This document shows positions 28,793-47,790 of a stretch of 64,000 nucleotides of DNA, in pieces. Source of the DNA: Escherichia coli. Its GTDB lineage: Bacteria > Pseudomonadota > Gammaproteobacteria > Enterobacterales > Enterobacteriaceae. Every line of letters starts with the position of its first letter. Within the stretch, counting starts at the first letter, position 1. Made by a program: the position numbers and the translations under genes. The DNA lies in NCBI RefSeq assembly GCF_003334305.1, contig NZ_QOWS01000017.1. One strand, written 5' to 3'. A model generated the notes under the pieces. It had not been told where the DNA came from and searched no databases. It worked only from the letters and a program-made list of their open reading frames with translations.

Positions 28793-28806
28793 ACCCCGTC
28801 TCCTGA

Positions 28807-30637: not shown

Positions 30638-30667
30638 TTGCCTTTTTCCGGCATTTGCGGATATAGT
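30638..30667 (+). promoter_or_regulatory. candidate PLE-like sigma70 promoter
   Basis: TTGCCT - 18 nt - TATAGT immediately downstream of vis, where P4 places its early/immunity promoter (recalled). Confidence 0.35.
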
Positions 30668-30991
30668 TTTTCCGTTGCCGCAAAATCGGCAGCCGGGCGT
30701 GAGAACCCGTGTAACTCGAAGGCGACATATGACGCGCCATGCGTCTTTTTTTGTGTCGCAATCAACGCCACAGAGCGCCAGATTATGGTGTGGCGTGTGG
30801 TTTGCCGTGCAGGTATGATCCTGTTCGCAATCGCATGTTATGCCACTGAGTCAATGGTAGCTCAGGCGGGGCAGCCTCCGGGCTGGCCGGTATTCTTCGA
30901 GGCCGGTATTCTCACCCCCGTCTGGGCTATCGCCATCGAGCGTGAGAACTCCGGCGATAGCAGTTATTTGCTACTCGAAGGAGGCTGCCTT

Positions 30992-31189
30992 ATGGCTACA
31001 ACCCTTACCCCCTCACACCCTGAATTTGTCTTTGTGTTTGCGGCTGTCCGTCGCGCAGACCGTCATCCCCGTATCTGCATGCTTCGCACCGTCGCCGGTG
31101 ATGAACGCAGCGCCCGCCGTTCCCTTGTCCGTGACTATGTGCTCTCCCTTGCTGCCCGTCTGCCGGTGGTGGAGGTGTCCCGTGCGTAA
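30992..31189 (+). CDS. Icd-like / P4 kil-region small protein
   Basis: 65 aa [45 protein letters not shown]... with a strong RBS gaaggagg 6 nt upstream. Resembles proteins annotated as Icd-like cell-division inhibitors in P4-like elements (recalled). Confidence 0.5.
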
Positions 31190-31469
31190 TAAAAAAGCCC
31201 CTCAGACCGTCTCAGCACGTCATGACGCCCGTGAACACCTCAGCATTGAGGCTTACCATAAGCTCAACCGCGCCAGCTCCGTATCCCAGTTTGTTGGGGG
31301 TGATTTGATTCACCGTGAACTCTCCGGCCTGCATCAGCTCTACATTCCGCATATTTTCAGCTACCTGAATGAAGATATTGATTTTGTGCTGAATGAGCTG
31401 AAAGCCAAAGGCCTGTGCCGCGATTTTCTCGCCCAGCAGAAAGACCGGGGAGACAGGACGCATGTTTGA
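31182..31469 (+). CDS. eps: Epsilon-like antirepressor (derepresses P2-type helper)
   Basis: 95 aa from a GTG preceded by ggaggtg. Position directly upstream of orf151 as in P4. Confidence 0.6.
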
Positions 31470-31917
31470 TTTTCCCCAGCCCGGTGAGATTTACCGTTCT
31501 GCCGGTTTTCCCGATGTGGCCGTGGTCGGCATTCTGGAAGACGGTATTCCGTGGGAAATGCCGTACCGCTGCCCGGACATTGTCTGGAACCCGTACCGCC
31601 GTAAATTCAGTATCCTTGTGCGTATCCTCGCTGACGGACGCACCACAGACATCCCGCTGGGGCGTTTTCTGCGGGAATTTACCTGTGACCGTCCTGACCT
31701 GTTTAAACGCAGCCCCGTAAACCGGCATGCGGTACTGAAAGAAATGGCCGGAGACCCGGAATTACAGAAATGGCGGGAAAAATATCTGGATATTTACCCG
31801 CAGGCCCCTGTTCCGGTCAGCCGGGCGGCACCGGTGGCGCGGGAATGGCGGGAAATTCCCCGCACGGAGCCTGACCCGGAAATCACCCCGGATAACAGTT
31901 ACCGCAATTATCTGTAA
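31462..31917 (+). CDS. P4 orf151-like protein
   Basis: 151 aa. The start overlaps the epsilon stop. Same length and position as P4 orf151. Confidence 0.65.
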   Translation: MFDFPQPGEIYRSAGFPDVAVVGILEDGIPWEMPYRCPDIVWNPYRRKFSILVRILADGRTTDIPLGRFLREFTCDRPDLFKRSPVNRHAVLKEMAGDPELQKWREKYLDIYPQAPVPVSRAAPVAREWREIPRTEPDPEITPDNSYRNYL

Positions 31918-32052
31918 TTAAAAAACGACACCCGAAAAATTAAATGTGCGTATTCGCGCAGGGATACGCACGTCTTCAGGAGACGCAGATATGCCTTATC
32001 AGTTAATGCAACCGGCACGGAATGCAGTCATCTGTCACAGGGAGGAAAGCAA

Positions 32053-32373
32053 ATGAAAACCCCCTTACCGCCCGTCTTACGCGCAGCCCTTTACCGTCGC
32101 GCTGTCGCCTGTGCCTGGCTGACCGTGTGCGAACGTCAGCACCGCTACCCGCATCTCACCCTTGAATCACTGGAGGCGGCCATCGCCGCTGAGCTGGAAG
32201 GCTTTTATCTGCGCCAGCACGGTGAGGAAAAAGGGCGTCAGATAGCCTGTGCCCTGCTGGAAGATTTAATGGAATCCGGCCCCCTGAAGGCCGCGCCGTC
32301 GCTGTCCTTTCTCGGGCTGGTTGTGATGGATGAACTCTGTGCCCGTCACATAAAAGCGCCGGTACTGCACTGA
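32053..32373 (+). CDS. conserved P4-family hypothetical protein upstream of alpha
   Basis: 106 aa with RBS gggagga. Same position, and as far as I recall the same length, as a P4 left-operon ORF. Confidence 0.55.
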
Positions 32374-32387
32374 AGGAGAACAACACC

Positions 32388-34721: not shown

Positions 34722-34728
34722 CCCACCT

Positions 34729-34753
34729 GACCGGCATCTGCCGGTCTTTTTTT
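34729..34753 (+). terminator. intrinsic terminator after alpha
   Basis: gaccggca-tc-tgccggtc followed by T7. Confidence 0.7.
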
Positions 34754-34767
34754 ATCCCTGAATTCCC

Positions 34768-35070
34768 CGAAGGTGAACAATCCACTGTTCACCCTTCACC
34801 GTATATTCACCCGTTATCACACTGAAATTAAAAGAGAAAAACGAAAGGTGAACAGTGTGAACAATCAAATCAAAAAAAACTTTTTTCTTCCTGAGTGATT
34901 TCAGCACGGGAAATTAATCCCCTGCACAAGTCACACCGGCAGAATGCCGGAGGTGAAGAATCGAATGTTCACCCTTCACCCATTATTCACCACCTATCCA
35001 ACTGAAATAAAAGGAGAAAACAGAAAGGTGAACAGTGTGAACAGTTCTTTCGAAAAAAAATTTTTTTCTT
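34768..35070. repeat. crr-like cis replication region: two ~120-bp direct repeats with TGTTCACC/GGTGAACA octamers
   Basis: 34768-34885 and 34948-35065 align nearly base for base (ggtgaa[c/g]aatc..tgttcacccttcacc..attcacc..gaaaggtgaacagtgtgaaca). About 4.8 kb from the ori cluster, as in P4. Confidence 0.75.
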
Positions 35071-35184
35071 ATTTTTAATTGTGCGAAAAACAAGCGACAC
35101 ACGCAGTGTGTATAGATATGTGTATAGTTATATTTTTTGAATATTATAATGTATTACAAATCAATGTGTTAGCTTGTAATATTC

Positions 35185-35205
35185 ACTCCTATTATCGGCA
35201 CCATC
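35185..35205. repeat. att core copy 2 (attR of P4-like element = attL of second island)
   Basis: Exact 21-bp copy of the thrW 3' end. Confidence 0.85.
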
Positions 35206-35270
35206 AAGAAAATCAATAACTTAGCTTAACTTCTCTAAGAAATTGTATCTTCTGTTATCACTTACAAACG

Positions 35271-35675
35271 CCTATACGTTGTTATGGGCTTTGGTAGTGT
35301 AACACGTATGGGCGAGTAGTTCCCAGGCTCAACCTCGTAACAAGTTCCTTTGAAGCTGGAAGACGTGCCACCGTCTCTAAACCTTCTACCAAAACTCTTA
35401 GCAAGATGTTCCACACCTGGCGCGGTGTCCAATGATGCTACACGTCGTGAGACGTTGCAGAGGATAAACAGGCTAAATGATGGGAAGAGTTTTAAGTGCA
35501 ATAGTGGATTAAAGCCCACCTCTTCAAAACCTAACTTGATCGGGAAAGAATCAAGCTCTAGCACGGTTTCGTCCACCGGAGTACAACGGGTGCCTGATAA
35601 GAGAAGAACTGCTAAGACTTCATAGCTTTTGTGAAAAAGCCCTTTTTAGTGGATACGCCTACGGCGCTTATTTTT
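35271..35675 (+). ncRNA. candidate structured non-coding RNA (class unknown)
   Basis: GC-enriched patch in AT-rich DNA. Contains a 13-bp hairpin (35271-35311), GUGA-capped hairpins (35442-35455 and 35625-35640), 6-bp helices (35484-35525 and 35535-35555), and a weak stem plus T6 at 35656-35676. The only ORFs here are two mutually antisense ones without RBS. Confidence 0.3.
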
Positions 35676-35808
35676 TGGTATAACCATCAAAGGCGCTTTA
35701 TGGCTCCTATTGTCTTGAAAATGTATCTTTACTTGTATTGTGTTTTATGCGTAGTCTCCCTGTGTAGTATGTAACTTGTTAATTTTCATATGAATACAGA
35801 GGCACACG

Positions 35809-35967
35809 ATGAAAAACATTGCAGCTATCAAACGGAATAACCGCAAGATTCACGCTCGTAAGTTCCTGTCTACGCCAGAAGGAAAAGCCTGGCTAGAGCG
35901 TAAACAGAGAGAAAACGAAGAAAGAAAACTCCTTAGTGAGTTGAAATGGCTTAGAGAGGATTTCTGA
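35809..35967 (+). CDS. small basic hypothetical protein (52 aa)
   Basis: MKNIAAIKRNNRKIHARKFLSTPEGKAWLERKQRENEERKLLSELKWLREDF. Weak RBS (gagg). Below the size cutoff of the ORF track. Confidence 0.3.
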   Translation: MKNIAAIKRNNRKIHARKFLSTPEGKAWLERKQRENEERKLLSELKWLREDF

Positions 35968-36310
35968 AAATCTCCAGAACGCAACAGGACGCATTCTAAC
36001 GCTGTTTTCATTACTCGGTATAGGGATTATAGGTGATGTGTGTTTAATGCGTCTGTGAGCTTGTTTTGTGCCTTATTTTGCATTTTCATAATGCAGGAGA
36101 GAACACGGAAAGCCTTAAAATTAATTATTGGGGTATTTAAGGCTATTTTTAGGTTATTTAAGGGTATTAAACTTGATTTAATTGATTGAAATATAAACAG
36201 ATAATTATGTATCTTATTGATTTATAAGGTTATTTTTAAATAAAGGTAAATAAAAAATAAATAGCCATAAATAGCTATAAATACATCTAAATACCTATAT
36301 CCCTTCCCTT

Positions 36311-36694
36311 ATGGCTAGATTGCGAGAAGTGCTTAACGCGATTTTCAGCGCCCCCCGATCTGGAAAATCCAGAATCCCCAAATATCAGCAAGGAATTTTC
36401 TTGCGTAATCAACATCGTTTTTACCTATTAAATCATTACACAGAAAGCCTTTCTGTAATGTCTCTCACTAAACTTTCACTAAACACGAGAATGATCGGTT
36501 TTATGTCGGATCAGATGCTAGAAATAGCACCACGTCTCACAAGGGCTGTAAGCGATGAAACCAGTGTTTATGCGGGTGCAGGTCAAAATATAGGCCAAAA
36601 TACATTTAACATAATAAACGTAATATGCACTAAGGAACACATAGAACGCCTTGAGTTGATGTATCAGGGGAAAAGTGGTGGATTTTTTACGTAG
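36311..36694 (+). CDS. hypothetical protein
   Basis: 127-codon ORF with no recognisable domain and no clear RBS. An internal start at MSLTKLSLNTR is possible. Confidence 0.3.
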   Translation: MARLREVLNAIFSAPRSGKSRIPKYQQGIFLRNQHRFYLLNHYTESLSVMSLTKLSLNTRMIGFMSDQMLEIAPRLTRAVSDETSVYAGAGQNIGQNTFNIINVICTKEHIERLELMYQGKSGGFFT

Positions 36695-36713
36695 GAGCAC
36701 GAGAGGGCTTCTA

Positions 36714-36741
36714 TTGACTTTTGTATGCTATGAAATATAAT
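36714..36741 (+). promoter_or_regulatory. candidate sigma70 promoter
   Basis: TTGACT - 16 nt - TATAAT. It overlaps the putative start of the 36730 ORF, so one of the two calls is probably wrong. Confidence 0.35.
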
Positions 36742-36999
36742 AGAAGGTTTTTTTATGTTGATAGTGATTGCACATTAAAGATTGAAAGCAAATTTAAACA
36801 TAAATTTTCAACACGTGAAAGAGAACTTGTTCGACAAATGATAAAACGTTTATTGAGCAACAATTTTGCAGTGATGCGCTATATGCCGAATTACACAAGG
36901 CTTTGCGAAAGTGATGTAAAAGTGAAGAAAGTAAGAATTGCAACTTTAAGCTACTTTTCATTGAATTTTTTAGTATGGAATTACACAGGAATAAGTTAG
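36730..36999 (+). CDS. hypothetical protein (doubtful)
   Basis: 89-codon ORF from ATG 36730. No domain recognised. The 3' end runs into the TTACAC motif field. Confidence 0.2.
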   Translation: MKYNRRFFYVDSDCTLKIESKFKHKFSTRERELVRQMIKRLLSNNFAVMRYMPNYTRLCESDVKVKKVRIATLSYFSLNFLVWNYTGIS

Positions 37000-37084
37000 G
37001 GATATTCTATGATTTACACAGGGAATATAGGGGGATTATGGCACACACATAGAAAGACATTACACAAAGTGCTATGTGACAAAT

Positions 37085-37305
37085 GGATGTAACGAGAGGT
37101 TACATTCAGCTATCTGAAATGCTCTCTGTAAGAAAGTTGGTAGTAACGATATGTTACATAGACTAATTATTGAATGTAACGATATTACACATCGGTAGTA
37201 ACGATACGTTACATCGACTAATTATTGAATGTAACGATATTACACATCGGTAGTAACGATACGTTACATCGACAGATGATTGGATGTAACGAAAGGTTAC
37301 ACAAT
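37085..37305. repeat. iteron array: 55-bp tandem repeats carrying GTAAC-N5-GTTAC palindromes
   Basis: Units at 37139-37193 and 37194-37248 differ at 2 positions. A third partial unit runs 37249-37302, with a further palindrome atgtaacgagaggttacat at 37087-37105. That makes about 7 palindromic or half-palindromic sites. Confidence 0.85.
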
Positions 37306-37500
37306 AAGACTATATTATTTATAATACTAAATAAAACTATATTAGATTATTAATTAGATCATAATAATATTCTTTATATCTATATATATGATCTTTTGCC
37401 TTCCGGCGTTAGCTTCACTCCCTGGCAAGCAGCCTTACTCCGCTACCTTTCGGGCTACGTTGGCTGGCCCGTTCCGCTCACACCGAAAGCAAAGCGTTAC

Positions 37501-37542
37501 TTTCTTCGTGTAACTATCGTGGCGGTAACGCCCACGAAGAAA
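37501..37542. other. long hairpin with GNRA-capped inner helix inside a GC-rich patch
   Basis: tttcttcgtg (37501-37510) pairs perfectly with cacgaagaaa (37533-37542). Inner ggcg-GTAA-cgcc at 37521-37532. Confidence 0.5.
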
Positions 37543-37624
37543 TACTATTGCGCTGTGCGCAGAAGAGTAATCACCTAACCAATCATAGATTGCTTATGTG
37601 TTAACTCTCTCTACCTCTTAATTC

Positions 37625-37776
37625 CACTTCCTACATTTAATAACTCTGTTATTCTCTGTAGTTGTGTAATTACTCGAAGAGAGAGCGGCTAAAGCTCAAT
37701 TACACTCTGCTTTCCTCGTGTAAGTTCACTAAGCCTCAATACAATTTCACTTCCTACATTCTGTAGTCGTGTAATT
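37625..37776. repeat. dispersed direct repeats (cacttcctacatt and ctgtagtYgtgtaatt)
   Basis: cacttcctacatt at 37625 and 37748. ctgtagttgtgtaatt at 37656 and ctgtagtcgtgtaatt at 37761. The modules are adjacent in copy B and 18 bp apart in copy A. Confidence 0.75.
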
Positions 37777-38398
37777 GTTTTCGGTGGAAAAGCCAGAGGC
37801 GACACCGAAAGAGAATTCTGATCTTATTAATCTTATCTATCTTAGTTAATCTTCTTACTTTATCTACTTTATTATTAATAATAGCTTTATAAGCTCTGTG
37901 TAGCTCTCTGACGCAAGAAACAGCATTCAGGAAGGGAATCACCTTAGAAAAGGTGTTCTTTGCGTCATAATGTGTTTTATGAAGGATTCAGAGGTGTTTC
38001 ATAACAGGAATGTATAGAGGATATTTTAATTAATTAAAAATAAGGGGTCTAAATGCTTCTCTAACAACATTAAGCAGGGTAGGGAATGGAAACGCATTGC
38101 CTACATATAATAAGCTCACTACAGGGCTTTACAGAGCGTTTTATAAAGTGACTCTCTGTTTTATATTTACCATTACCTTTTCATATACCTAACAAATACA
38201 AAATAAGCCCCTTCAATAAGCCTCTGGCGAGCGAAACAGCCATTAGATAAGGGAATGTATTGCTTTTATCAAAATCTCGTCAGAATGCGATTGAGAGTGT
38301 TTTAGCGGATAATGAAGAATAGCACTACATAGAAGAGCACGAATTGTTAAGCAAAATCATAACATACTGAAAAAGATCAGTTTTTTTGTGAAAAGGTA

Positions 38399-38427
38399 TT
38401 GACAAACGTCTCTTTCTGTGCAATAAT
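38399..38427 (+). promoter_or_regulatory. strong sigma70 promoter P1 (extended -10)
   Basis: TTGACA - 17 nt - TGcAATAAT, followed by agg-TATTAG-aGGGG. Paralogous to the promoter at 40928. Confidence 0.65.
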
Positions 38428-38486
38428 AGGTATTAGAGGGGACAGGAATAGATTCTTATCCTCTAAATAATTAAACCAATGCACCG

Positions 38487-38526
38487 CACTTTGAAGCCCA
38501 AGAGGCTTGCAAGGTGTTTTTTCTTT
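38487..38526 (+). terminator. intrinsic terminator ending the P1 leader
   Basis: Interrupted stem (acttt-g-aagcc / ggctt-gc-aaggt) followed by gTTTTTTCTTTT. Ends 29 nt before the first ATG of the operon. Confidence 0.6.
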
Positions 38527-38554
38527 TAACCAAATCGAATAAGGAGGCTAATTA

Positions 38555-38731
38555 ATGAAATATTTCACTCCACAGGATGTAGTAGAAGCCTGGAAACGTG
38601 GTGAGATCAACCGCTTTAAAGTAAGGATGTATAGAAACACCGCTCGCCGTTGTGGTTATCCAGAGCGTGAAAAATGTTTTGACGATGCACTGAAAATTAT
38701 TGATGAACTGCGTAAAGCTGAGAAAGAATAA
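38555..38731 (+). CDS. small hypothetical protein (58 aa)
   Basis: ATG preceded by aaggagg at optimal spacing. MKYFTPQDVVEAWKRGEINRFKVRMYRNTARRCGYPEREKCFDDALKIIDELRKAEKE. Missed by the 60-aa ORF cutoff. Confidence 0.55.
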   Translation: MKYFTPQDVVEAWKRGEINRFKVRMYRNTARRCGYPEREKCFDDALKIIDELRKAEKE

Positions 38732-38753
38732 TAGACAAGAGAAGGAGAAAACT

Positions 38754-38921
38754 ATGAGCGAAACTAAGAAACCAATTCCGCGCACTTACCTTCACGTTGA
38801 CCCTGAAATCTTCAAGGTTTTATTTGCTGAAGCCAAGAAAAGGCAAATTATGGTCAGTGATTTGATGTTAGAAATCATTACTGAAGCAGCAGAGAACATC
38901 AAACAAAAAAAGGGTAAGTGA
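38754..38921 (+). CDS. ribbon-helix-helix (Arc/CopG-like) DNA-binding protein
   Basis: 55 aa from the ATG after gaaggag. The pattern PRTYLHVDPEIFKVLFAEAKKRQIMVSDLMLEIITEAAENI fits strand-helix-helix. Confidence 0.5.
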   Translation: MSETKKPIPRTYLHVDPEIFKVLFAEAKKRQIMVSDLMLEIITEAAENIKQKKGK

Positions 38922-38974
38922 TCCTCATTCACTTTAGTAGCGCATTAAGCGTGATTTATAAGGAGATGATTCTA

Positions 38975-39718
38975 ATGTCTAAAATTAAATTGATTCGTGA
39001 AAAATACCAGTATGTTGATAAACAAACAGGAGAAATTAAAGACCGAACTTTGAATATACCGCATTACTTTTGTGAGATTGAATTTATCTACTCCTCAAGT
39101 GTTGATGGTGGAAAAGTTAAGTTTAGTGCAGAAATGCAAAAATTATATTGCTATGTTTCAGATTGGGAGAAATCAGGGGGGATATGTTTTGAAACACAAA
39201 CGAAGTTAAGTAAAGTTTGTGGCTGTAGCCGTAAGACAGTTAATGAACTGATTGGTCTTATGATTAAAATCGGTCTTTTAGAAGAGGTCGGAGAACGAAT
39301 TCCAAAACGTCCTTTAAAATTACGTGCGCTACCTCTCACAGATGCACATATTACTCCCCCAGGAGAATCATCACTCTCTGATCTTTCTGAGGCAGAAGAA
39401 GCACAGGAACAACCTAAAGGCCATAAACAGCCTTCTTTTGATGTTCTTGATGATTGGGATGCGCCTTTACCGTGGGAGACGGAAGAAACACCTGTTTCAT
39501 CAAGTGAAAAGGTAGCTAATGATAATGAGGAGGATGTATTAGAGAATTTTGCCTCTCTTATCATCCAGGAGAAACACACAAGAACAGGAGGAGCATCATT
39601 TATTGAGTTTGCAAATTCACTAGCTTATAGATACGGGCTAAAACGACCAAATGGTATTGAGGCATATTTTTCTAAGAATTACCCAAATGTATATGATGAA
39701 TTTGATATTCCCTTTTAA
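38975..39718 (+). CDS. wHTH replication-initiator-like protein with acidic linker
   Basis: Start after taaggag. The segment LYCYVSDWEKSGGICFETQTKLSKVCGCSRKTVNELIGLMIKIGLLEE resembles HTH_36-type plasmid/phage Rep N-domains (recalled pattern). Has an acidic D/E/S-rich middle. Confidence 0.45.
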   Translation: MSKIKLIREKYQYVDKQTGEIKDRTLNIPHYFCEIEFIYSSSVDGGKVKFSAEMQKLYCYVSDWEKSGGICFETQTKLSKVCGCSRKTVNELIGLMIKIGLLEEVGERIPKRPLKLRALPLTDAHITPPGESSLSDLSEAEEAQEQPKGHKQPSFDVLDDWDAPLPWETEETPVSSSEKVANDNEEDVLENFASLIIQEKHTRTGGASFIEFANSLAYRYGLKRPNGIEAYFSKNYPNVYDEFDIPF

Positions 39719-39729
39719 TAAGGAGGACT

Positions 39730-40009
39730 ATGATTCAATATTTAGTAAAAAAATCAAGTAGACAGAATTCAGTGTAATGACACAGGAAAACGCATCTACG
39801 AAACACTTGCTTACCTCTATAAAGGAAAGCCAACACCGCTAAAATATAGCGATGTGTTACATCGAGCAGGGTGCTCTGAAGCTGGTTTAAAATTCTGGCT
39901 GAAACAGCTATCAAATTTCGGTGTTATTGAAATGAAAGAGCTGTCTTTTTCTACATTCAATCTCAAAAGATTAGATAAAGAAATAGAATTCATCTATTCC
40001 ACTCTCTAA
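39730..40009 (+). pseudogene. wHTH protein gene interrupted by a frameshift in an A7 run (or using programmed slippage)
   Basis: Strong RBS taaggagg then ATG 39730. The frame closes at 39777. The +1 frame stays open to 40009 and encodes ...GKRIYETLAYLYKGKPTPLKYSDVLHRAGCSEAGLKFWLKQLSNFGVIEMKE. The switch point is A7 at 39747-39753. One fewer A gives a continuous 92-aa ORF. Confidence 0.5.
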
Positions 40010-40050
40010 AATCTCTCTATGTAATTAAAATATAAAAGGAAAACATTATT

Positions 40051-40170
40051 ATGATAGTAGCTATGTATTGGTTATTGTTCTTTCTCACGTTAGAAGCATA
40101 CTTTGGGGTGTTTTCCTTTAAAAGAAAAGGAAAAGTAAATAATGGCAAAAAGAAAAAACAACGTTGTTAA
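40051..40170 (+). CDS. small hydrophobic peptide with polybasic tail (39 aa)
   Basis: MIVAMYWLLFFLTLEAYFGVFSFKRKGKVNNGKKKKQRC: one TM helix plus a K-rich tail. RBS-like aagga 10 nt upstream. Overlaps the next ORF by 29 nt. Confidence 0.3.
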   Translation: MIVAMYWLLFFLTLEAYFGVFSFKRKGKVNNGKKKKQRC

Positions 40171-40558
40171 GAAAATCGGTGATTCAGCTTCTCTTCTAAG
40201 TAAACCTAAACCTAAATCTATTCTAAGACGTAAAGACTTTAAAGAGCTAGTTACGCTCACCAAGCAAAATAGCGCCCCTGGCGAATGGAAAACAGAGATC
40301 ATAGAACATTCTCCCTCTGTGCCTTGTGGAGATGAATTTAACGCCTTGCAAGAAATCTTATCTTCAACACCTGGCGTATTCTGGAAACCTAGAAAAAGAA
40401 AAGAGTATATCGTTGATAGCTCTGATTTACGCAAATACCAGATTTTAGGATTTGAAGATTATAACCACTACGTCGGTTATCTCGCCACCAATGGCCTAAA
40501 TAATTTAGTTCCTGAATTCCAAATTTTAGATAATGCTGATCACTATGGAGACTTTTAA
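40142..40558 (+). CDS. hypothetical protein with basic N-terminus
   Basis: 138 aa in the same orientation as the operon. No domain recognised. Confidence 0.5.
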   Translation: MAKRKNNVVKKIGDSASLLSKPKPKSILRRKDFKELVTLTKQNSAPGEWKTEIIEHSPSVPCGDEFNALQEILSSTPGVFWKPRKRKEYIVDSSDLRKYQILGFEDYNHYVGYLATNGLNNLVPEFQILDNADHYGDF

Positions 40559-40559
40559 T

Positions 40560-40898
40560 ATGAACAAAAACACGTATGACACAATTTATTCACTAATTAA
40601 TTATTATGAGGATGATTACCTCCTGCCTTTAAACCGCGCTGAACTTGAAGCATACAAAGAAAACACGCCAGGGGCGCTAAATGAGGCGTTTAAACACTGG
40701 GATTTAGCTGTGAATGCCTTTGAGCACCTTTCTAAAAGAGTAGAGATGCTCTGTAAGCGTGAAAACGCATACCTGACAGCCGATCAGATATGGGAGCTAT
40801 CAAACTGGATAGAAGATATTGAATCTGATGTTCGCTATGTAGGGGATGGCCTGGTTGAATTAGCTCAACGCTTAGGCGCTACTATCACAGAAGAATAA
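40560..40898 (+). CDS. hypothetical protein
   Basis: 112 aa from an ATG 2 nt after the upstream stop. Helical and acidic. No domain recognised. Confidence 0.5.
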   Translation: MNKNTYDTIYSLINYYEDDYLLPLNRAELEAYKENTPGALNEAFKHWDLAVNAFEHLSKRVEMLCKRENAYLTADQIWELSNWIEDIESDVRYVGDGLVELAQRLGATITEE

Positions 40899-40927
40899 AA
40901 AAAGCAACAAAAAAGTTGTAAAATATC

Positions 40928-40956
40928 TTGACATTCCATCTATTGTATGTTAATAT
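40928..40956 (+). promoter_or_regulatory. strong sigma70 promoter P2 (extended -10)
   Basis: TTGACA - 17 nt - TGtTAATAT, followed by aat-TATATA-GGGG. Same layout as P1. Confidence 0.65.
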
Positions 40957-41094
40957 AATTATATAGGGGTGATTATTTTTCCTTTATTGGTTCGATATTA
41001 AAAATTCTTCCTGTCATTAAAGGGGAGTAAAATCTCCGCTCCCCGCTTCTCCTCCTTAAGTAAATACTGTGTCATTATACCTCTTTTTTCCTTT

Positions 41095-41124
41095 GTTATG
41101 CATACATCTTGGAGTATGCATAAC
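41095..41124. other. perfect 10-bp inverted repeat in the P2 leader
   Basis: gttatgcata-catcttggag-tatgcataac. Confidence 0.6.
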
Positions 41125-41153
41125 ATAGGGTAATTACATAGGTATGAGTTAAT

Positions 41154-41185
41154 AAAAGGCGGCTCTAAATGCTGCCTTTTATTTT
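41154..41185 (+). terminator. intrinsic terminator ending the P2 leader
   Basis: aaaaggcggc-tctaaat-gctgcctttt (10 bp including one G-U) followed by ATTTT. Ends 63 nt before ATG 41248. Confidence 0.65.
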
Positions 41186-41247
41186 GCCCGTTATGCAACT
41201 TAAAAGTTGTATTTCTTACTTTAAAAAAGGTAACAAGGTTTATATAA

Positions 41248-41460
41248 ATGTTGTTTTTAAACGATAAAGAGCAAATCATCAAGTATAAAGATGAAATGCT
41301 GAAAATTAATCCACAAATTACCGAAATGGTAGCTAAATACGCTGGGTGTTCTGTCGAGGAAGTAGAAAGATGTGTTGAAAAATATTTTTCTCCTTCTACT
41401 CCGTCTACACCTTCCCTTAATGAATTAATCAAATTAAAAGCTAAGGAGATTACTAAATGA
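41248..41460 (+). CDS. small hypothetical protein
   Basis: 70 aa. First gene after the P2 leader. The stop overlaps the next start (ATGA). Confidence 0.5.
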   Translation: MLFLNDKEQIIKYKDEMLKINPQITEMVAKYAGCSVEEVERCVEKYFSPSTPSTPSLNELIKLKAKEITK

Positions 41461-41819
41461 TTATTGATTTAGACACTCTGTTTCCAGTTAGAAAGACTTT
41501 CACAGATATTGTAAGTTATTGTACTGATCCGTTTGCCTCTGTAGAAAGCAAGGTTTTTGCTTCTCTTCCTGCTGATGTTGAGTGCGGCGACTTGATCACC
41601 AGTACTGGCGCTAAATATGAATCAGGAGATGATATCTATGTTGTTATGAGTGAATTTGTAACGGCTGGAGAAAACAAGCCTGTAGATGTGCTACGTAGTA
41701 ATGCTGGTCTTGTCTGCATCAAAGCTGATGCGCTGAATGCTGTAAGTGAAGCAGCAAAAACAGCATTAATTAAAAAAGGCTTCCAGCTTGAAGGGTTCCA
41801 TTCTGTTTTCACTTCTTAA
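41457..41819 (+). CDS. head-decoration-like protein (lambda D-like position and size)
   Basis: 120 aa directly upstream of the capsid-like gene. The size and G-rich beta-type pattern loosely resemble lambda gpD-type decoration proteins. The call is based on synteny. Confidence 0.4.
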   Translation: MIIDLDTLFPVRKTFTDIVSYCTDPFASVESKVFASLPADVECGDLITSTGAKYESGDDIYVVMSEFVTAGENKPVDVLRSNAGLVCIKADALNAVSEAAKTALIKKGFQLEGFHSVFTS

Positions 41820-41837
41820 TAAAAGGAATAATAATAA

Positions 41838-42869
41838 ATGATTCTAGGTAATGATTACGTTGATTTAGCTCCGCTTTTCCAGGCACACAGCACTAGAAAC
41901 TTTCTGCTCTCTACCCTCGACTTCACTGATCCGGTGGGCGTTAGTTCTCATAAAGTAGCTGTTTCTCAGCTTGTCGAAAGCAACGAATCTCTGTTCAACA
42001 AAGAAACCTCTCGTTTCTCTTCTGAACACAATGTTACTAAGCGTGAACAAGGTAAAGAATGGCTGATTGAAATCCCGTATTTTCTTCGTGAAGATGTGAT
42101 CCGTCCTTCTGATGTTCAAGGCAAGCGTAAGCCTGGCACTGATTTTCAGGAAACACTCACTGATATCTATGCGGAATATATCGCTAAACACCACGTAGCG
42201 TATCAGCGTACAAAAGAGAGCGTGTTGGCTGCATCTCTGTTTAGCGGTAAAACTTACACGCCTAAAACTGATGATGTTCTTATCGAGTGGGGCAAGCTGT
42301 TTAACGTGGCACCTATGAAAGCCACCTTGAACGCTTCCAGCACTGACACAATGACCGTTTTCAAGCAATTTGACCAGCTTGCTACGGATATGATTGCTAA
42401 GGCACAAAACCAGGCTGCAACCATTGAGCGTGTTGTTGTGTTCTGTAAACCTGCGGCATTCAACGCTATTCGTTACAGTGTTGGTATGGTCAATGCTTTC
42501 CAATATGCAAGCCCTGTAGACGATGCCAACGTGGTGTTTAATGTGCGTTCCCTGCTACCAGGTGTAACTACTTTCACCATTCCAGGAACTAACATTGACC
42601 TGATCAAAGTGACTGATCCGCTACACCTTGCACATATGGCTTCTGATGCGGTTGCTGTGCCTAAATTCGCTAAGGGGGCAGGTGTTTACCAATCTATCTA
42701 TGGGGCAGCTTCCAGCACCTTTGAACTGATCAATGCCGCTCCTGCTGAGGTGTATAGCTATAGCTATGAATCTTCTTCTCGTGGTGATGCTGTTAACGTT
42801 GTTACAGAGAATAGCCAGATGGTGGTAAACCACGGCGTTGGTTTCTCCGTTCAAATCACTGTTAAATAA
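41838..42869 (+). CDS. major capsid protein, lambda gpE-like family (putative)
   Basis: 343 aa (lambda gpE is 341 aa). N-terminal LAPLFQAHSTRNFLLSTLDF resembles the P.TFLLDTFF motif I recall from Phage_cap_E proteins. RBS aaaggaa. Followed by a strong terminator. Confidence 0.5.
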   Translation: MILGNDYVDLAPLFQAHSTRNFLLSTLDFTDPVGVSSHKVAVSQLVESNESLFNKETSRFSSEHNVTKREQGKEWLIEIPYFLREDVIRPSDVQGKRKPGTDFQETLTDIYAEYIAKHHVAYQRTKESVLAASLFSGKTYTPKTDDVLIEWGKLFNVAPMKATLNASSTDTMTVFKQFDQLATDMIAKAQNQAATIERVVVFCKPAAFNAIRYSVGMVNAFQYASPVDDANVVFNVRSLLPGVTTFTIPGTNIDLIKVTDPLHLAHMASDAVAVPKFAKGAGVYQSIYGAASSTFELINAAPAEVYSYSYESSSRGDAVNVVTENSQMVVNHGVGFSVQITVK

Positions 42870-42887
42870 TATTTTAACGTGTAATAG

Positions 42888-42922
42888 AGGCGTGGCGTGA
42901 ATAACACGCTTCGCCTTTTTTT
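42888..42922 (+). terminator. intrinsic terminator after the capsid-like gene
   Basis: aggcg-tg-gcgtg aataa cacgc-tt-cgcct followed by T6. Confidence 0.7.
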
Positions 42923-42955
42923 ATTTATTTTTAAATTTTGAGAGGTGATTAAAAT

Positions 42956-43159
42956 ATGGAAGTGATTCTGAAATCAAAAAATGGTGTACACGTTTATTTA
43001 GATGCTAATGATTCAAGAGGCTTGTTAAATCTGAAATATCTATGTTCTCTCTTGGATGTTCCATATGAAGGCGTAAAAGCCCGAATGTTCAGATTAAACG
43101 AGAGTATTGATCAAGCTCTACACCATTTCTTAAGCAAAGAAGGTGGTAAAAATGATTAA
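42956..43159 (+). CDS. small hypothetical protein (possible HTH)
   Basis: 67 aa with RBS gagagg. The segment LKYLCSLLDVPYEGVKARMFRLNESIDQAL looks HTH-like. Confidence 0.45.
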   Translation: MEVILKSKNGVHVYLDANDSRGLLNLKYLCSLLDVPYEGVKARMFRLNESIDQALHHFLSKEGGKND

Positions 43160-43173
43160 TAAGGGGATTTTAA

Positions 43174-45012
43174 ATGTTAGAAATTAACACTTCTAAAATT
43201 AAGAACACAGTAACATTTAGTGTAGATAAAGACAGCTTGAAAAAAGCGAAAGACTCTATTACAGGCTTAAAGGAATTCACAGAAAACATCAAGCCAGCTA
43301 AATTAAGGTTTGATAGTGTCACTAAAGGCTATAAGAAAGCACAAAGCGAAGTAGACAAGATTGCTCAACAGAAAGCTAAAACAGAAAAGCAGAATCAAAG
43401 AGCACAAGCTGCCGCAGCAAGAGCACAGGCAAGGCAACAGACACAAATAGCAGCACGTAAAGAGAAAGCAGAATTAAAGCTCCTCGATGTGTCAAGCTCT
43501 ATCAGTGCAATGCACCGCCTCTCTGTAGCGGAACAATACAAAGCTATTGCACAGGCTAGAGAGATAGCAAAACAATATGAGCAAGGGGCTATCTCGCTTG
43601 CACGTATGAATAGTCAGATGAAACGCCTACAACAGCAACAACGTAAGATTAATGGCAACAGAAAAGCTCAATTAGCCCCCGTTAAGGGAGGAGGATCAGG
43701 GAATTCCGCCACGATGGGTGCTCTGTTATTTGGAGGCGCTACAGCGGCTGCTGGCGTGATGGCTGTTAGTAAAGCGTCGGAGTTTGTTAGTAACAGTTTC
43801 GCTAACGCAGAGACACAAGGTGAGCTAATTCAACGTGCAAGGCTTGGCGGTGTAGACGTTAACCAGATGTACAACATTACAGAATGGGCCTATAGAAACG
43901 GCGTTGACTCTATGATGGGTGATCAAGGGGCTAGGAAATACCTGGATCAGATGAAAGATGTTAGGGAACGTGCCGCAAAATCCTATAGTGAAGCTGAATA
44001 TGTAGTCGATAAAAAAACTGGTAAAGGCGGCGAATGGAAAGGCGGTGATAACGCTATTAATGAACTTCTAAACATCGGTGTTATTAACAAGAGCGACCTT
44101 AAAAAATTTGCTGATAATCCAGCCGGATTAATTTCTAAGGCTGTTAATGGAATGATGAAAAAAGGGTTTTCAGACTCCCAAATTGGACAACGTTTAGAAG
44201 ACCTGGGTGATGATTTGATGCTTACATCAAAATATTGGCAACGTTCCGTTAAAGATGTACAAACAAGCATCGAGCAGCAAAAAGCCTCTGGAAAATGGCT
44301 AACAGAAACACAGCAAGATTCTATTGTTAAATTCAGAGAACTAAACAGACAGCTTTCACAGCTTTCTGATGCAAGACAAGTAGCATTTGTAGACGGCTTT
44401 ATGAAATCTCTCGATCCAAAAGTAACGGAAGAGTTTATGAAAAACCTTTCTAATCTCACTCCGTATTTTACAAAGCTGGGAGAAGCTACAGGAAGTCTCT
44501 TTGAAGCTATTATGAAGATTGTAAACTGGTTTAATCGTAATGATGATAAGACAGATGCTATTCAGAAAAATTTAGGTGATGCACCGCCATTAAGCAATGA
44601 AGGAATGAAACAGAATCTTTCTAATCTCGTTCCTGATCAATATAAAGGCGCTGGCACCGGAACAACTAAGCCAGATAACAGCAATTCCCTGTTTAACACT
44701 ATTAAGGGATTGCTTTTCGATGATAAGTCTTCTTCTGTGTCAGATGTAAAAATGTCAGTCAGCGAAGCACCGATAACCAATCTCAAACAGGGCGCTTTAA
44801 ATAATCTTGCAATGACAACTCCGGCTTATAATTTATCTCCTGTGTTTAATCTGAATCCTACATTTGAAGTGGTAACAGAGGTTCCTCTTACTATTAATTC
44901 TGACACATCAAGATTAAGCGATTATGTGGATTTTACAGCGAGATCAAGTCGGGATAGCTTCTTGAAATCATTAACATTAACCAGCTTATCAGGACAATCT
45001 AACGGCGGGTAA
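43174..45012 (+). CDS. tape-measure-like protein
   Basis: 612 aa. N-terminal Q/A/K-rich coiled coil, Gly-rich hydrophobic segment GGGSGNSATMGALLFGGATAAAGVMAV, then a long helical region. This composition is typical of tail tape measure proteins. Confidence 0.45.
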   Translation: MLEINTSKIKNTVTFSVDKDSLKKAKDSITGLKEFTENIKPAKLRFDSVTKGYKKAQSEVDKIAQQKAKTEKQNQRAQAAAARAQARQQTQIAARKEKAELKLLDVSSSISAMHRLSVAEQYKAIAQAREIAKQYEQGAISLARMNSQMKRLQQQQRKINGNRKAQLAPVKGGGSGNSATMGALLFGGATAAAGVMAVSKASEFVSNSFANAETQGELIQRARLGGVDVNQMYNITEWAYRNGVDSMMGDQGARKYLDQMKDVRERAAKSYSEAEYVVDKKTGKGGEWKGGDNAINELLNIGVINKSDLKKFADNPAGLISKAVNGMMKKGFSDSQIGQRLEDLGDDLMLTSKYWQRSVKDVQTSIEQQKASGKWLTETQQDSIVKFRELNRQLSQLSDARQVAFVDGFMKSLDPKVTEEFMKNLSNLTPYFTKLGEATGSLFEAIMKIVNWFNRNDDKTDAIQKNLGDAPPLSNEGMKQNLSNLVPDQYKGAGTGTTKPDNSNSLFNTIKGLLFDDKSSSVSDVKMSVSEAPITNLKQGALNNLAMTTPAYNLSPVFNLNPTFEVVTEVPLTINSDTSRLSDYVDFTARSSRDSFLKSLTLTSLSGQSNGG

Positions 45013-45046
45013 TTCCCGCCATAACATTACAAGGAAAATTATTATT

Positions 45047-45760
45047 ATGGCGACCGCCGGGATTTTAACCATACGTGCAGCAAATACTCCAGAACAACAC
45101 GTTCAGGCTGTTTACAAAGCAGAACAAGATATAAATTCTACAAAAAACGAAAATAGCAAAGCTAATAAAACAAAAGGAGAGAACGGATTTGCTATTGTTA
45201 CCAGTGGCTTGGCATCTTCTGGCAATGACGTTTATGAAAATTATATGGCCCTGGCCTTTGACAGTGTAGACGATGTGAACGTGAGACGTTCGGCAGATGT
45301 CACAAGCTACCCCGTAGAAAATGGTGCTACTGTGTCTGATCACGTTCAAATTAAAAACAATAAGTTTTCTCTTAAAGGAAGGATCACTGAAACACCGATT
45401 AAAAGCGATCCTGGCTTGTTAAAGAGTGCAGGGGTGAACGGGAACAGAAGATCATTAGCCATAGACTACTTGAATCAGATTATGGACAGTAGACAGCCTT
45501 TTCTTCTTGTTACAGAAAATAAAACTTTTGAGAACGTTGTTTTAACAGGCATCGAATACACAGAAGAGGCAAGCGAATCCCTGGTATTTGATCTTAGCTT
45601 TGAGCAGATCAGATTAGTTTCTTATGGCACTGTATCCACTATTGCACTTAAAACACAACCATCTAAGAACATCGGGGCGAATATGAAAAAACGTGTTAAC
45701 ACTGAAAAATCAAGTAGTGAAGGTGAAGACACTATTACTCCTGCCTTTAAGCAGAAATAG
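45047..45760 (+). CDS. putative virion (tail-lumen / tube-initiator-like) protein
   Basis: 237 aa directly after the TMP-like gene. The motif VTSYPVENGATVSDHVQIKNNKFSLKGRITE recalls the (H)EYPGRD..VEDLG...S..G pattern of Mu gp43-type tail proteins. The resemblance is weak. Confidence 0.3.
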   Translation: MATAGILTIRAANTPEQHVQAVYKAEQDINSTKNENSKANKTKGENGFAIVTSGLASSGNDVYENYMALAFDSVDDVNVRRSADVTSYPVENGATVSDHVQIKNNKFSLKGRITETPIKSDPGLLKSAGVNGNRRSLAIDYLNQIMDSRQPFLLVTENKTFENVVLTGIEYTEEASESLVFDLSFEQIRLVSYGTVSTIALKTQPSKNIGANMKKRVNTEKSSSEGEDTITPAFKQK

Positions 45761-45801
45761 CCGTAAACGCCTCTAAAACGCTCTGTAACGATGTAATTAT
45801 A

Positions 45802-45834
45802 AAAGAGGCTGCCAATCTATGTTGAAGCCTCTTT
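45802..45834. terminator. bidirectional hairpin between convergent genes
   Basis: aaagaggct - 15 nt - agcctcttt, a 9-bp perfect stem between the 45760 stop and the integrase stop. Confidence 0.55.
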
Positions 45835-45841
45835 ATTGTGT

Positions 45842-47206
45842 TTATGGCGTTGTTTTACGCCTTAAATTTGATTTTTTATTGATTGATAAGCCTTTCTCTA
45901 TTTCAGGGTAGCGTAGAAGCTCAATATAGTTTTTAAGCTCTACTGGAGAAGCTGCATTCTTGCTATATGTGCGGAATGTCTCTGTATTGCCGCGTGTATG
46001 GCCCAGGAGAAGGGCGATCCTGTCTTCTGGAATTTGATTTCGATCAAGAAGCTGTGCTACTCCGTGTCTCAGAGAATGAAACACTTTCCTTTCTGTTCCC
46101 TTTTCCCCTAAAGCCTTTCGTTTAGCTCTTGTAAATCTCTGCGTGTGCCACGTGGAACGTTTACCATCAGCACGCTCTGTAATGCTGGCGTGATAGAACA
46201 AAAAGCCATTATGAGGCTTTTCACGCAGCGACAACACCAACGGAGTGATAAGGCTATGTACAGGCACAACACGTGCCGCAGCTTTCGTTTTTCCCTGTGT
46301 GATTTCAAAACACAGCACACCTTCGATCTCTTTCACATCGTCTATTGTGAGACTTGCTATCTCATTGATCCGCATACCTGTATATAAACCGATAAGACAC
46401 AAAGCCATCATTTCTTTGTTTTCTGCTGAATTACCGGAAAATACTTGCAACACCTGCAATAGCTCTTTGTTAGAAAATGCCTCGTAGCTCTCTCTACTTT
46501 GTGCCACATCAAGCCTATGCCCTCGCCAGGGGGAGAGCGCCCTTTCTGGCGCATCGTGGTAACGTGATGAAGCTAACTCCCATAGCTGGGCTATTGGGCT
46601 GATATAATTTGCAATTGATTGTTGTGAAAGAGTTTTTTGCATGTGTTCTATCCAGCCTGTAACAGTGGTGCGGCTCACATCTTGCAATGCAATATCAGGC
46701 TTTTTACGGTAGGAGAGAAACATCTCTACCGCTTTTCTTGCCTTAGCTAAAGTGGCTGGCTTCTTCTTCGTGCTGTTAATTGTCAGGTAGATTTCAAGAA
46801 TTTTAAGCAATGACGGACACGAAGACGCTGTATCTTGCATTCTGGTAGCTGTTTTGGCGTATTTAGCCTTACTGCGTAACAGCTCCAGCGTGTTCTCTAT
46901 TGTGCTGTTTACAGGGGCGACACTCTCCCGTAGGCAATGGTATTCATCTGCAATCTGATCACGCTTTCTACGTGCAACACGAAGATTATTTGTGTGTAGA
47001 CTTCTGACAAACGTCCTTTTTCCTTCAAAAAAGGGCTGCATATACACAGGCAGCGTGATCCTTAAATAGTAGTTACCGTAAGAATCACAGATTAAGTATT
47101 GGTTAGGCTTGTATCTCATAAAATCTCCGGCTAAAGTGTCGGAGCGTTTGTAATGTGAAAATTGATTGTAACGCATAGAAAATGATAATTTTTCTATAAG
47201 ATTCAA
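45842..47206 (-). CDS. tyrosine recombinase/integrase of the second island (K-12 IntF-like position)
   Basis: 454 aa. Catalytic R (TGMRINEIASL), HxLRH (FHSLRHGVAQLL) and HTRGNTETFRTYSK (H...Y). N-terminal YYLRITLPVYMQPFFEGKRTFVRSLHT arm-type domain. Adjacent to the thrW-like fragment, as intF-ptwF is in K-12 (recalled). Confidence 0.85.
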   Translation of the reverse strand: MNLIEKLSFSMRYNQFSHYKRSDTLAGDFMRYKPNQYLICDSYGNYYLRITLPVYMQPFFEGKRTFVRSLHTNNLRVARRKRDQIADEYHCLRESVAPVNSTIENTLELLRSKAKYAKTATRMQDTASSCPSLLKILEIYLTINSTKKKPATLAKARKAVEMFLSYRKKPDIALQDVSRTTVTGWIEHMQKTLSQQSIANYISPIAQLWELASSRYHDAPERALSPWRGHRLDVAQSRESYEAFSNKELLQVLQVFSGNSAENKEMMALCLIGLYTGMRINEIASLTIDDVKEIEGVLCFEITQGKTKAAARVVPVHSLITPLVLSLREKPHNGFLFYHASITERADGKRSTWHTQRFTRAKRKALGEKGTERKVFHSLRHGVAQLLDRNQIPEDRIALLLGHTRGNTETFRTYSKNAASPVELKNYIELLRYPEIEKGLSINKKSNLRRKTTP

Positions 47207-47217
47207 TCAATTAGTAA

Positions 47218-47280
47218 TGGTCGTAGGTGATGGCATTAACACGAGATTAATCGAGTGTTTTACTCCTATTATCGCACCAT
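47218..47280 (+). pseudogene. thrW-like tRNA 3' fragment / degenerate att core copy 3 (ptwF-like)
   Basis: ggtcgtaggt (as thrW 23328-23337), then 34 nt of unrelated sequence (47228-47261), then actcctattatcg-caccat (thrW 3' end with a 1-nt deletion). Confidence 0.65.
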
Positions 47281-47405: not shown

Positions 47406-47790
47406 TTAAACCAATTGCTGCCGCCATTCTTTGACGTAGTCAATCAGGGCGCGGAGCTTTGGTGCAATATTGCGACGCTGTGGGAAATACAGATAGAAGC
47501 CCGGAAATTGTGGAAGAAAGTCATCAAGCAGCGATACAAGCTTACCGCTTTCAATATATGGCCTGAAAGTTTCCTGAGTGGCAATTGTTATTCCTCCGCC
47601 GGCAAGAGCCAGCCTCAACATCAGACGCAGATCATTAGTCGTAATCTGCGGTTCAATCGCAAGGTCGAAAGTTCTCCCGTTTTCTTCAAATGGCCAGCGA
47701 TAAGGCGCAACCTCCGGGGACTGACGCCAGCCGATACACTTATGGGTATTTCCCCCGGAGGCGAGAAAGCGCTCTCCACGCCCGGCCGCA
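47406..47790 (-). pseudogene. yagP: LysR-family regulator C-terminal fragment (yagP-like)
   Basis: Only the effector-binding C-terminal half is present (ITTNDLRLMLRLALAGGGITIATQETFRPYIESGKLVSLLDDFLPQFPGFYLYFPQRR). There is no HTH. The upstream part of the track ORF overlaps paoD out of frame. Confidence 0.6.

Follow-up and report, generated by a model that had tools for sequence, protein, structure and literature searches.

A 12-kb chromosomal island of Escherichia coli with its own tape measure and capsid proteins as a probable satellite of virulent phi92-like myophages

The window analysed here, a stretch of 64,000 nucleotides of Escherichia coli DNA (contig NZ_QOWS01000017.1 of assembly GCF_003334305.1), contains a chromosomal island of 12.07 kb at positions 35185–47274 with a G+C content of 35–43% as compared with ~50% in the flanks. 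The island encodes a tape measure protein (TMP), a tail tube initiator and a major capsid protein (MCP) related to those of phage phi92, and carries a copy of a junction near the genome end of this phage. We propose, with a probability of roughly 0.65, that it is an integrative satellite of virulent myophages of the Stephanstirmvirinae, packaged by the terminase of the helper and carried in chimeric tails. The island in the window appears to be matched to phi92-like phages (Justusliebigvirus) and its sister islands to phAPEC8-like phages (Phapecoctavirus). An integrase with attachment (att) repeats, the small size and an incomplete set of virion genes are satellite features of the island.

The island encodes a tape measure protein and a tail tube initiator of the phi92 type

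The original prediction, made from the DNA letters and their open reading frames (ORFs), had described two consecutive genes as encoding a tape-measure-like and a tail-lumen-like protein. Both ORFs are present on the plus strand at the positions given (43174–45012 for the product of 612 residues, 45047–45760 for that of 237 residues), and the peptides quoted for them are found at residues 172–198 and 85–115, respectively. The homologies of the two proteins show that both calls were right.

In the phi92 structure determined by cryo-electron microscopy, gp134 is the trimeric TMP, the C-terminal residues 631–656 of which lie inside the baseplate hub, and gp135 is the hexameric tube initiator of a tail with 24 tube/sheath rings (PMC13450770). 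Both are chains of Protein Data Bank (PDB) entry 21vq. The 612-residue island protein matches phrog_16051 (‘tail length tape measure protein’) of the PHROGs collection with E=4e-54 and the gp134 chain of 21vq with E=2e-38, and no family of Pfam or NCBIfam. It aligns with gp134 from end to end; identity amounts to 56% over the N-terminal 66 residues and to about 26% beyond them (26–30% outside the termini). The C-terminal motif SD..RLSDY.DF...SLTL..SGQS aligns with residues about 620–658 of gp134, so that the hub-docking segment is kept. The composition is also as had been described: residues 46–170 are rich in Ala (18%), Gln (16%) and Lys (12%), and the strongest hydrophobic window, which is the sole strong one, is located at 178–198 (KD19 = 1.6).

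The relatives of this protein in phages are annotated TMPs of Justusliebigvirus and Phapecoctavirus, both Stephanstirmvirinae. The related phages are virulent and have genomes of about 148 kb. Records named ‘Campylobacter phage’ (host Campylobacter jejuni; MG065639, MG065645, MG065656, MG065689 and MG065650) gave matches identical to those in phi92-like or phAPEC8-like coliphages, and are probably mislabelled or contaminant genomes. The sole match outside Escherichia in a scan of species-representative genomes with a TMP pattern is from the metagenome-assembled genome Proteobacteria bacterium OH_PFB_59 (JAEZZU010000064.1; 25% identity over the full length). It is on a 43.5-kb contig, possibly a phage contig binned into this assembly.

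Island TMPs are shorter than phage TMPs. They have 610–616 residues in more than 100 E. coli variants and 623 residues in the islands of Klebsiella, Cronobacter and Citrobacter, as compared with 651–659 residues in the phages. The N-terminal pattern MLxIN..VTFxVD, a central domain with NGVDS..KDxRE..WKGG..DD and the C-terminal hub-docking motif are kept in the island proteins; the Pro/Gly-rich insert of the phage TMPs is missing from them, as is most of the charged coiled-coil segment (about 40 residues). An exhaustive search among 1.84 billion proteins yielded 73 representatives of the family. Its length distribution is bimodal, with 596–636 residues for proteins without an N-terminal offset and 634–668 residues for those with an offset of +45–60 residues. 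Between island types, dN/dS is 0.16–0.20 for the TMP and 0.15 for the MCP, indicating purifying selection.

Katsura is said to have found in 1987 that the tail measures roughly 1.5 Å per TMP residue. In the PICI-like elements (PLEs; PICI, phage-inducible chromosomal island) of Vibrio cholerae, satellites of phage ICP1, chimeric tails are 10 nm shorter for a TMP difference of 95 residues (PMC12987554, Nature 2026). Calculated with this rule and this calibration, the deficit of 30–47 residues predicts tails that would be shorter by 4–7 nm, or one to two rings. A resetting of tail length, one of the roles originally suggested for the pair, is consistent with the conserved shortening of the TMP and has a precedent in the chimeric tails of PLEs. 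The other two suggested roles, an adaptation of DNA entry to the island genome and a poisoning of helper tail assembly, may apply as well.

Candidate reasons for which satellites may need their own TMP are immunity to a satellite-encoded inhibitor of the helper TMP, a fit to a small capsid or its neck, and interference with the helper. We consider it quite unlikely that the main purpose is evasion, be it of such an inhibitor or of host or prophage defences directed against helper TMPs, instead of length-setting. There is a model for this in PLE11, where Rta blocks the TMP of ICP1 and the PLE TMP is immune (PMC12987554). The low identity to the helper TMP outside the termini (26–30%) and the presence of at least five small island ORFs without assignable function would fit as well. 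However, Rta occurs in one PLE variant only while the TMP is universal in PLEs (PMC12987554), and a PADLOC scan of the unassigned ORFs of the island gave no match and revealed neither a Rta homologue nor any defence gene, albeit without direct comparison to the Rta sequence.

A gp135 homologue follows 35 nt downstream of the TMP gene, which thus adjoins a tube-initiator gene. The encoded 237-residue protein matches the Pfam family Dit_like (PF21821) with E=4e-29 and 101.6 bits (cut-off 24.2). It is 61% identical to gp135 (solved chain 21vq_N, E=3e-78), and further matches are 9cuy_K (‘Tube initiator protein’, E=2e-13) and Pam3 gp17 (E=1e-6). It had been compared to both tube-initiator-type and Mu gp43-like proteins, of which only the first description can be retained. 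A Pfam scan at E≤1 returned Dit_like and a sub-threshold match to DUF4369, not the suggested DNA_circ_N (PF07157). Given the 61% identity to gp135, the protein probably assembles on the hub into a tube-like ring of six subunits. In RefSeq, the two genes carry the labels ‘hypothetical’ and ‘phage baseplate protein’.

The tube-initiator gene is split by the insertion sequence (IS) IS5 in the island of E. coli O104:H4 2009EL-2050 (L004, 10614–12490) and truncated by IS1 in another E. coli island (L003, 12369–13645). It is absent from the islands of Klebsiella variicola and Citrobacter freundii and intact in that of Cronobacter sakazakii. The TMP thus belongs to the core of the island family, the tube initiator less so.

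As had been noted, no genes for a tail tube, chaperone, terminator or baseplate accompany the pair. Throughout the island (35185–47274), genes for portal, terminase, protease, tube, sheath, hub, baseplate and fibres were not found either with Pfam, PHROGs and NCBIfam or in the RefSeq annotation. The idea that the island supplies only proteins which occupy the tail lumen and are ejected with the DNA needs to be qualified. The tube initiator is a structural ring of the tube and is not known as an ejected lumen protein, and the idea leaves out the capsid proteins which the island also supplies: the MCP gene (41838–42869), located just upstream of the pair in the same operon, had not been mentioned.

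A non-coding sequence copies the genome-end junction of the probable helper

The whole island was compared with the whole phi92 genome at the nucleotide level. Over their first ~70 nt (43175–43244 and 45077–45147), the genes for TMP and tube initiator are 90–91% identical to phi92 DNA, whereas the remainder of both genes is far more diverged (26% and 61% amino acid identity for TMP and tube initiator, respectively). The identity of the gene starts points to recent DNA exchange with the helper and thus to co-residence in the same cells; a recent gene conversion with the helper or, alternatively, a constraint at the nucleotide level may account for it.

The genome of phi92 ends in direct terminal repeats of 343 bp. 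A non-coding sequence of the island on the minus strand (36314–36359) corresponds to phi92 positions 318–363. In this alignment of 46 nt, for which blastn-short gives an E of about 1e-13 to 1e-14, 43 nt agree, as do 44 in other island copies. This sequence, which we refer to as the junction mimic, straddles the repeat boundary, with 26 nt from the end of the repeat and 20 nt from the start of the adjoining unique DNA. The motif is kept in 56 Justusliebigvirus records and is found at 318–363 where the record starts from the repeat.

A second type of island, exemplified by that of O104:H4 2009EL-2050, is without the phi92 motif. Instead, ~80 nt match Phapecoctavirus genomes near their ends, in two places per record. 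In Phapecoctavirus Mt1B1_P17, which has a repeat of 328 bp, 29 nt of the match fall in unique DNA and 52 nt in the repeat. This is the same junction as in phi92, the genome being deposited in the opposite orientation. Both phage genera have a common core across the boundary, GAAAAT(T)CGCGTTAAGCAC(C/T)TCT. Among 5426 complete E. coli genomes, the phi92-type mimic is present in 409 and the phAPEC8-type in 157; these counts are close to the 542 genomes with the structural module of the island. The phi92 junction core was not found within three errors in the islands of Klebsiella, Cronobacter and Citrobacter.

It is difficult to account for two independent junction copies, each matched to a helper, other than as sites used by the packaging machinery of the helper. 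We therefore propose that the helper terminase recognises the junction mimic or cleaves the DNA there. At the sequence level, it provides what a satellite carries as a helper packaging signal or as a specificity factor of its own.

Genes for enzymes that act on DNA are located beside the mimic or at the equivalent place. In the E. coli islands of the second type, a serine resolvase/invertase of 183 residues adjoins it (L003, 2983–3534; L004, 1175–1726), and islands of other genera (L025–L029) have a short ORF of the Phage_integrase family (181–192 residues) at this place. phi92 encodes a DNA invertase, gp053.

The structural operon mirrors phi92 gene order and contains capsid genes

The genes of the structural operon, all on the plus strand, encode in this order a 70-residue protein, a 120-residue protein, the MCP, a 67-residue protein, the TMP and the tube initiator, with a terminator-like hairpin between the genes for the MCP and the 67-residue protein. 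This order mirrors that of phi92, where the cement protein gp123, the MCP gp124 and a terminator are followed farther on by gp133, the TMP gp134 and the tube initiator gp135.

The MCP (343 residues) is of the lambda gpE/HK97 type, as revealed by matches to the Pfam family Phage_cap_E (E=2.8e-14) and to phrog_29 (E=9e-14). Its relationship to phi92 gp124 is remote, with 20% identity and a pairwise E of 1e-7. Among solved structures, the best match is chain 9zbi_A (‘Capsid protein’, 344 residues, E=1e-9), not gp124. The hairpin with its T-run (42894–42922) follows the MCP gene as it does gp124.

The 120-residue protein (41457–41819; dN/dS 0.20) has the position and size of gp123, shares with it the C-terminus VFTS directly before the stop codon, and its gene has the same 17 nt immediately ahead of the MCP start. 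Pairwise comparison to gp123 gave no significant similarity, a PDB sequence search no match, and the AlphaFold2 model, computed from a 25-sequence alignment, was unusable (pLDDT 57). We consider it to be the probable cement or decoration protein on the grounds of position, size and C-terminus, not of a sequence or fold match.

The 67-residue protein (42956–43159) is encoded directly 5′ of the TMP gene, where phi92 has gp133, and has homologues in islands only. It is not similar to gp133 and belongs to no family of Pfam or PHROGs. Its AlphaFold2 model (pLDDT 80) consists of a hairpin and three helices; Foldseek found no match below E=0.1 in PDB or BFVD. A role as chaperone or regulator is possible. 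The first gene of the operon, which codes for the 70-residue protein (41248–41460), is highly variable among island types.

The operon is preceded by a strong sigma-70-like promoter (40928–40956, plus strand; TTGACA-17-TG-TAATAT), assigned by consensus match only; the phi92 structural genes have the same promoter type in front of them. Strong promoters of the sigma-70 type are found ahead of both island operons, as in phi92. A late-promoter motif shared with phi92 was considered and dismissed, since these generic promoters do not discriminate.

Of the gene set by which capsid-forming PICIs (cf-PICIs) are defined (MCP, protease, portal, head-tail connectors and small terminase), the island has the MCP, together with the cement-like protein, according to Pfam, PHROGs and NCBIfam. 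The absence of portal and terminase could also be read in a different way. The island might be purely defensive and not be transduced at all, with TMP, tube initiator and MCP acting as dominant-negative decoys that abort virion assembly of phi92-like phages. Both termini of the TMP are conserved, which would permit docking in helper hubs, and islands have often lost the tube initiator but retained the rest. Interference of mobile elements with tail assembly is documented (PMC11364771; Rta in PMC12987554). Nevertheless, we regard this explanation as rather unlikely, since it does not account for the two types of helper-matched junction mimic, for a replication module with iterons, or for a complete MCP under purifying selection and a tightly kept TMP length. 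Besides, interference and transfer are compatible in known satellites.

The island family is widespread and its modules are reassorted

The structural module was found in about 10% (542) of the 5426 E. coli genomes, and the carriers include O104:H4, O26, O103 and O157 lineages. Strain A7 (NZ_CP028767) has the island of the window with 100% identity over the island. Gene order is kept in diverged islands. Homologues of the 120-residue protein were detected in Citrobacter, Klebsiella, Kluyvera, Leclercia, Cronobacter and Enterobacter, and the islands of K. variicola, C. sakazakii and C. freundii have the same layout, with a TMP of 623 residues.

This distribution bears on the possibility that the island is a relic in decay, left by a prophage or by captured phage DNA, and that the two tail genes are without present function. 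The RefSeq labels and the IS insertions in some copies could be taken in this sense. However, the related phages are virulent, have genomes of about 148 kb and are devoid of integrases of the island type. The same compact gene order occurs in at least four genera, about one-tenth of E. coli genomes are carriers, dN/dS is 0.15–0.20 for MCP and TMP, and the island TMPs have derived deletions in common that are absent in phage TMPs. Decay is thus highly improbable.

Comparison of the islands reveals different combinations of modules. In the island of O104:H4 2009EL-2050, the TMP is 65% identical to that of the window, while the MCP allele (7310–8341, 343 residues) is only 19–20% identical. This allele aligns with the window MCP over the full length and has no match in Pfam or among phage proteins; its N-arm carries the motif TLI..L.LFDVQYH, with 60% identity to phi92 gp124. 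Another island (IMGVR_UViG_2651869781_000017, L008) combines a TMP of the window type (96% identity) with a junction mimic of the Phapecoctavirus type. These combinations show that modules reassort. An additional island, L015, contains the conserved anchor ORF and neither junction type; it may represent a third helper specificity.

A model for the satellite cycle

According to our proposal, the island would excise upon helper infection by means of its integrase and the att repeats at thrW, and replicate with the aid of a Rep-like protein and iterons. The helper terminase would then recognise the island at the copied junction of terminal repeat and unique DNA. Packaging would proceed on the helper portal into capsids of island MCP and cement-like protein, a shell sized for 12 kb that the island itself would supply. 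The island TMP, ~40 residues shorter and equipped with a helper-type N-terminus and the C-terminal hub-docking motif, would dock in the helper hub. With the island tube initiator as the first ring, helper tube and sheath would polymerise around it. The predicted outcome is a chimeric tail, one to two rings (4–7 nm) shorter, which would deliver the island DNA. Induction, packaging, incorporation into tails and, possibly, interference with the helper would all be parts of such a cycle.

Several points weigh against this model. The evidence for it comes from sequence analysis, and induction, packaging and transfer are predictions. No copy of the other, outer boundary of the terminal repeat was found in the island, and one mimicked boundary alone would not readily explain how a terminase of the direct-terminal-repeat type cuts unit-length DNA. 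A tail assembly chaperone was not recognised on the island by Pfam or PHROGs, nor by a fold match of the 67-residue model. The tube initiator, whose gene is IS-cut or absent in some islands, may be dispensable. The difference in length between the island TMP and those of the helpers is modest. The strong sigma-70-type promoters could allow expression without a helper. Finally, a search of IMG/VR for packaged copies returned only provirus calls from isolate genomes and no virome particles.

A wider claim, to which we would give even chances, is that these islands are the first recognised satellite family of large virulent direct-terminal-repeat myophages of Enterobacteriaceae (phi92-like and phAPEC8-like phages, common ingredients of therapy cocktails), characterised by junction mimicry, a small capsid of their own and a chimeric tail. 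Helper specificity would be set by reassortment of junction mimic, TMP termini and MCP allele, and the chimeric-tail strategy would have arisen independently a second time. Full-text searches of the literature yielded no description of the island, nor of satellites of phi92-, rV5- or phAPEC8-like phages; as subscription papers are thinly covered by this search, a prior description is possible.

Comparison with known satellites

The entry of satellite TMPs into chimeric tails has been experimentally shown for Vibrio PLEs only. Their own TMP, chaperone and hub protein BhuB replace ICP1 proteins in chimeric tails, and deletion of the PLE tmp gene lowers transduction by 96–99.9% (PMC12987554). Like the PLEs, the island would be an integrative satellite of a virulent myophage. 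In both cases, the own TMP is shorter than and distant from that of the helper (20% identity in PLE, 26–30% in the island), and a hub-proximal tail protein is better conserved (41% for BhuB, 61% for the island tube initiator). The remaining tail parts would in both cases come from the helper. In contrast to the island with its own MCP, PLEs remodel the helper coat via the scaffold TcaP, and they have a recognisable tail assembly chaperone, a gene for which was not found on the island. Hosts and helper lineage are different; the likeness is one of strategy, not of capsid handling or lineage. PLE function is proven by experiment, while that of the island is predicted from sequence. Putative tmp genes in other putative satellites, including some cf-PICIs, are listed in the legend of Extended Data Fig. 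10 of the PLE study (PMC12987554).

The cf-PICIs of Enterobacteriaceae resemble the island in being integrative, in having their own capsid protein of the HK97 type and in their dependence on helper tails. According to what Alqurainy et al. reportedly described in 2023, cf-PICIs carry a full head module consisting of portal, protease, head-tail connectors and small terminase. The island is without these components. Moreover, the predicted helpers of the island are not temperate phages but large virulent ones with direct terminal repeats.

A combination of MCP and TMP genes is also reported for the EPIPs of Mycolicibacterium aichiense, satellites with altered capsid size and tail length (preprint PMC12822802). 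Unlike the island, they encode a small terminase, head-to-tail adaptor and stopper, a scaffold and a serine integrase. A siphovirus prophage serves them as helper, and EPIP tails are longer and variable (PMC12822802).

P4-like satellites are tRNA-associated elements of 11–12 kb in E. coli, as is the island, and P4 is packaged via a copy of the helper site (cos). They differ in having no virion structural genes of their own except Psu and Sid, whose targets are the capsids of the helper, and by the alpha primase and the temperate helper P2. The marker genes of this group (Sid/Psu/Delta and alpha primase-helicase) are not present on the island but only in the element in tandem with it.

The closest counterpart of the TMP–tube-initiator pair is gp134/gp135 of phi92, to which the island genes are directly homologous and which have the same order; the TMPs have 659 and 612 residues, respectively. 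The carriers are a virulent phage of 148 kb and a chromosomal island of 12 kb. The island apparently represents a new family within the phage satellites, with a packaging trick that likewise appears to be new.

If the proposal is correct, about one in ten E. coli strains holds a parasite of phi92-like and phAPEC8-like phages. As such phages are often found in collections for therapy and biocontrol, the island could reduce phage yield and spread genes via lysates. Self-built tail parts as well as satellites of strictly virulent phages would extend beyond Vibrio, and mimicry of a direct-terminal-repeat junction would be a new packaging trick. The reassorted modules would constitute a natural experiment on which TMP enters which tail, a question left open by the PLE work.

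Integration site, replication module and neighbouring element

The region is flanked by proA and the tRNA-Thr gene thrW (23283–23358) on one side and the pao operon on the other, according to the RefSeq annotation. Two elements are arranged in tandem at this tRNA gene: its 3′ end (23340) is found again at 35185 and, incompletely, at 47262 (direct-repeat families D4 and D7). The left attachment site attL (35185–35205, plus strand) is a copy of the thrW 3′ end, ACTCCTATTATCGGCACCATC, and also delimits the neighbouring P4-like element on its right side. The right attachment repeat attR (47262–47274, plus strand), ACTCCTATTATCG, was detected by direct-repeat search. A tyrosine integrase is encoded on the minus strand (45842–47119; RefSeq coding sequence); it contains DUF6538, a SAM-like domain and a catalytic domain (Pfam Phage_integrase, E=1.4e-17).

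The remaining features are all on the plus strand. Near the left end is a small ORF of 52 residues (35809–35967) that is nearly identical across all island types. A largely non-coding stretch of 2.5 kb holds an iteron array (37084–37303), the probable replication origin, which is made up of 55-nt units with internal 21-nt repeats, TGTAACGA...GTTACA, in 3–5 copies (repeat families D2 and D3). The second strong sigma-70-like promoter (38399–38427; TTGACA-17-TG-AATAAT), also a consensus match only, precedes the operon of small ORFs and the Rep-like gene. The Rep-like protein (38975–39718, RefSeq start) is of the winged-helix/helix-turn-helix type and matches replication initiator O/DnaD-like PHROGs (phrog_270, E=9e-7; phrog_391, E=2.5e-5) and HTH_36 (E=1.5e-4). 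Two ORFs of 138 and about 112–121 residues (40142–40898) belong to no family of Pfam, PHROGs, NCBIfam or PADLOC. An Rfam scan of the island gave nothing meaningful.

The element in tandem with the island at thrW is a complete-looking P4-like satellite (window 23283–35205; element ~23.4–35.2 kb). Its genes code for an integrase, psu, an ogr/delta-like protein, a sid-like ‘glycoprotein 3’ and the alpha primase (32388–34721), and its low-G+C hotspot (24–28 kb) contains an ATP-dependent nuclease and a helicase of the UvrD family. One att site is thus common to two unrelated satellites. Adjoining attR is a fragment of a LysR-family gene (47406–47744), annotated as a pseudogene in RefSeq, which lost its N-terminus through insertion of the island or a neighbouring event.

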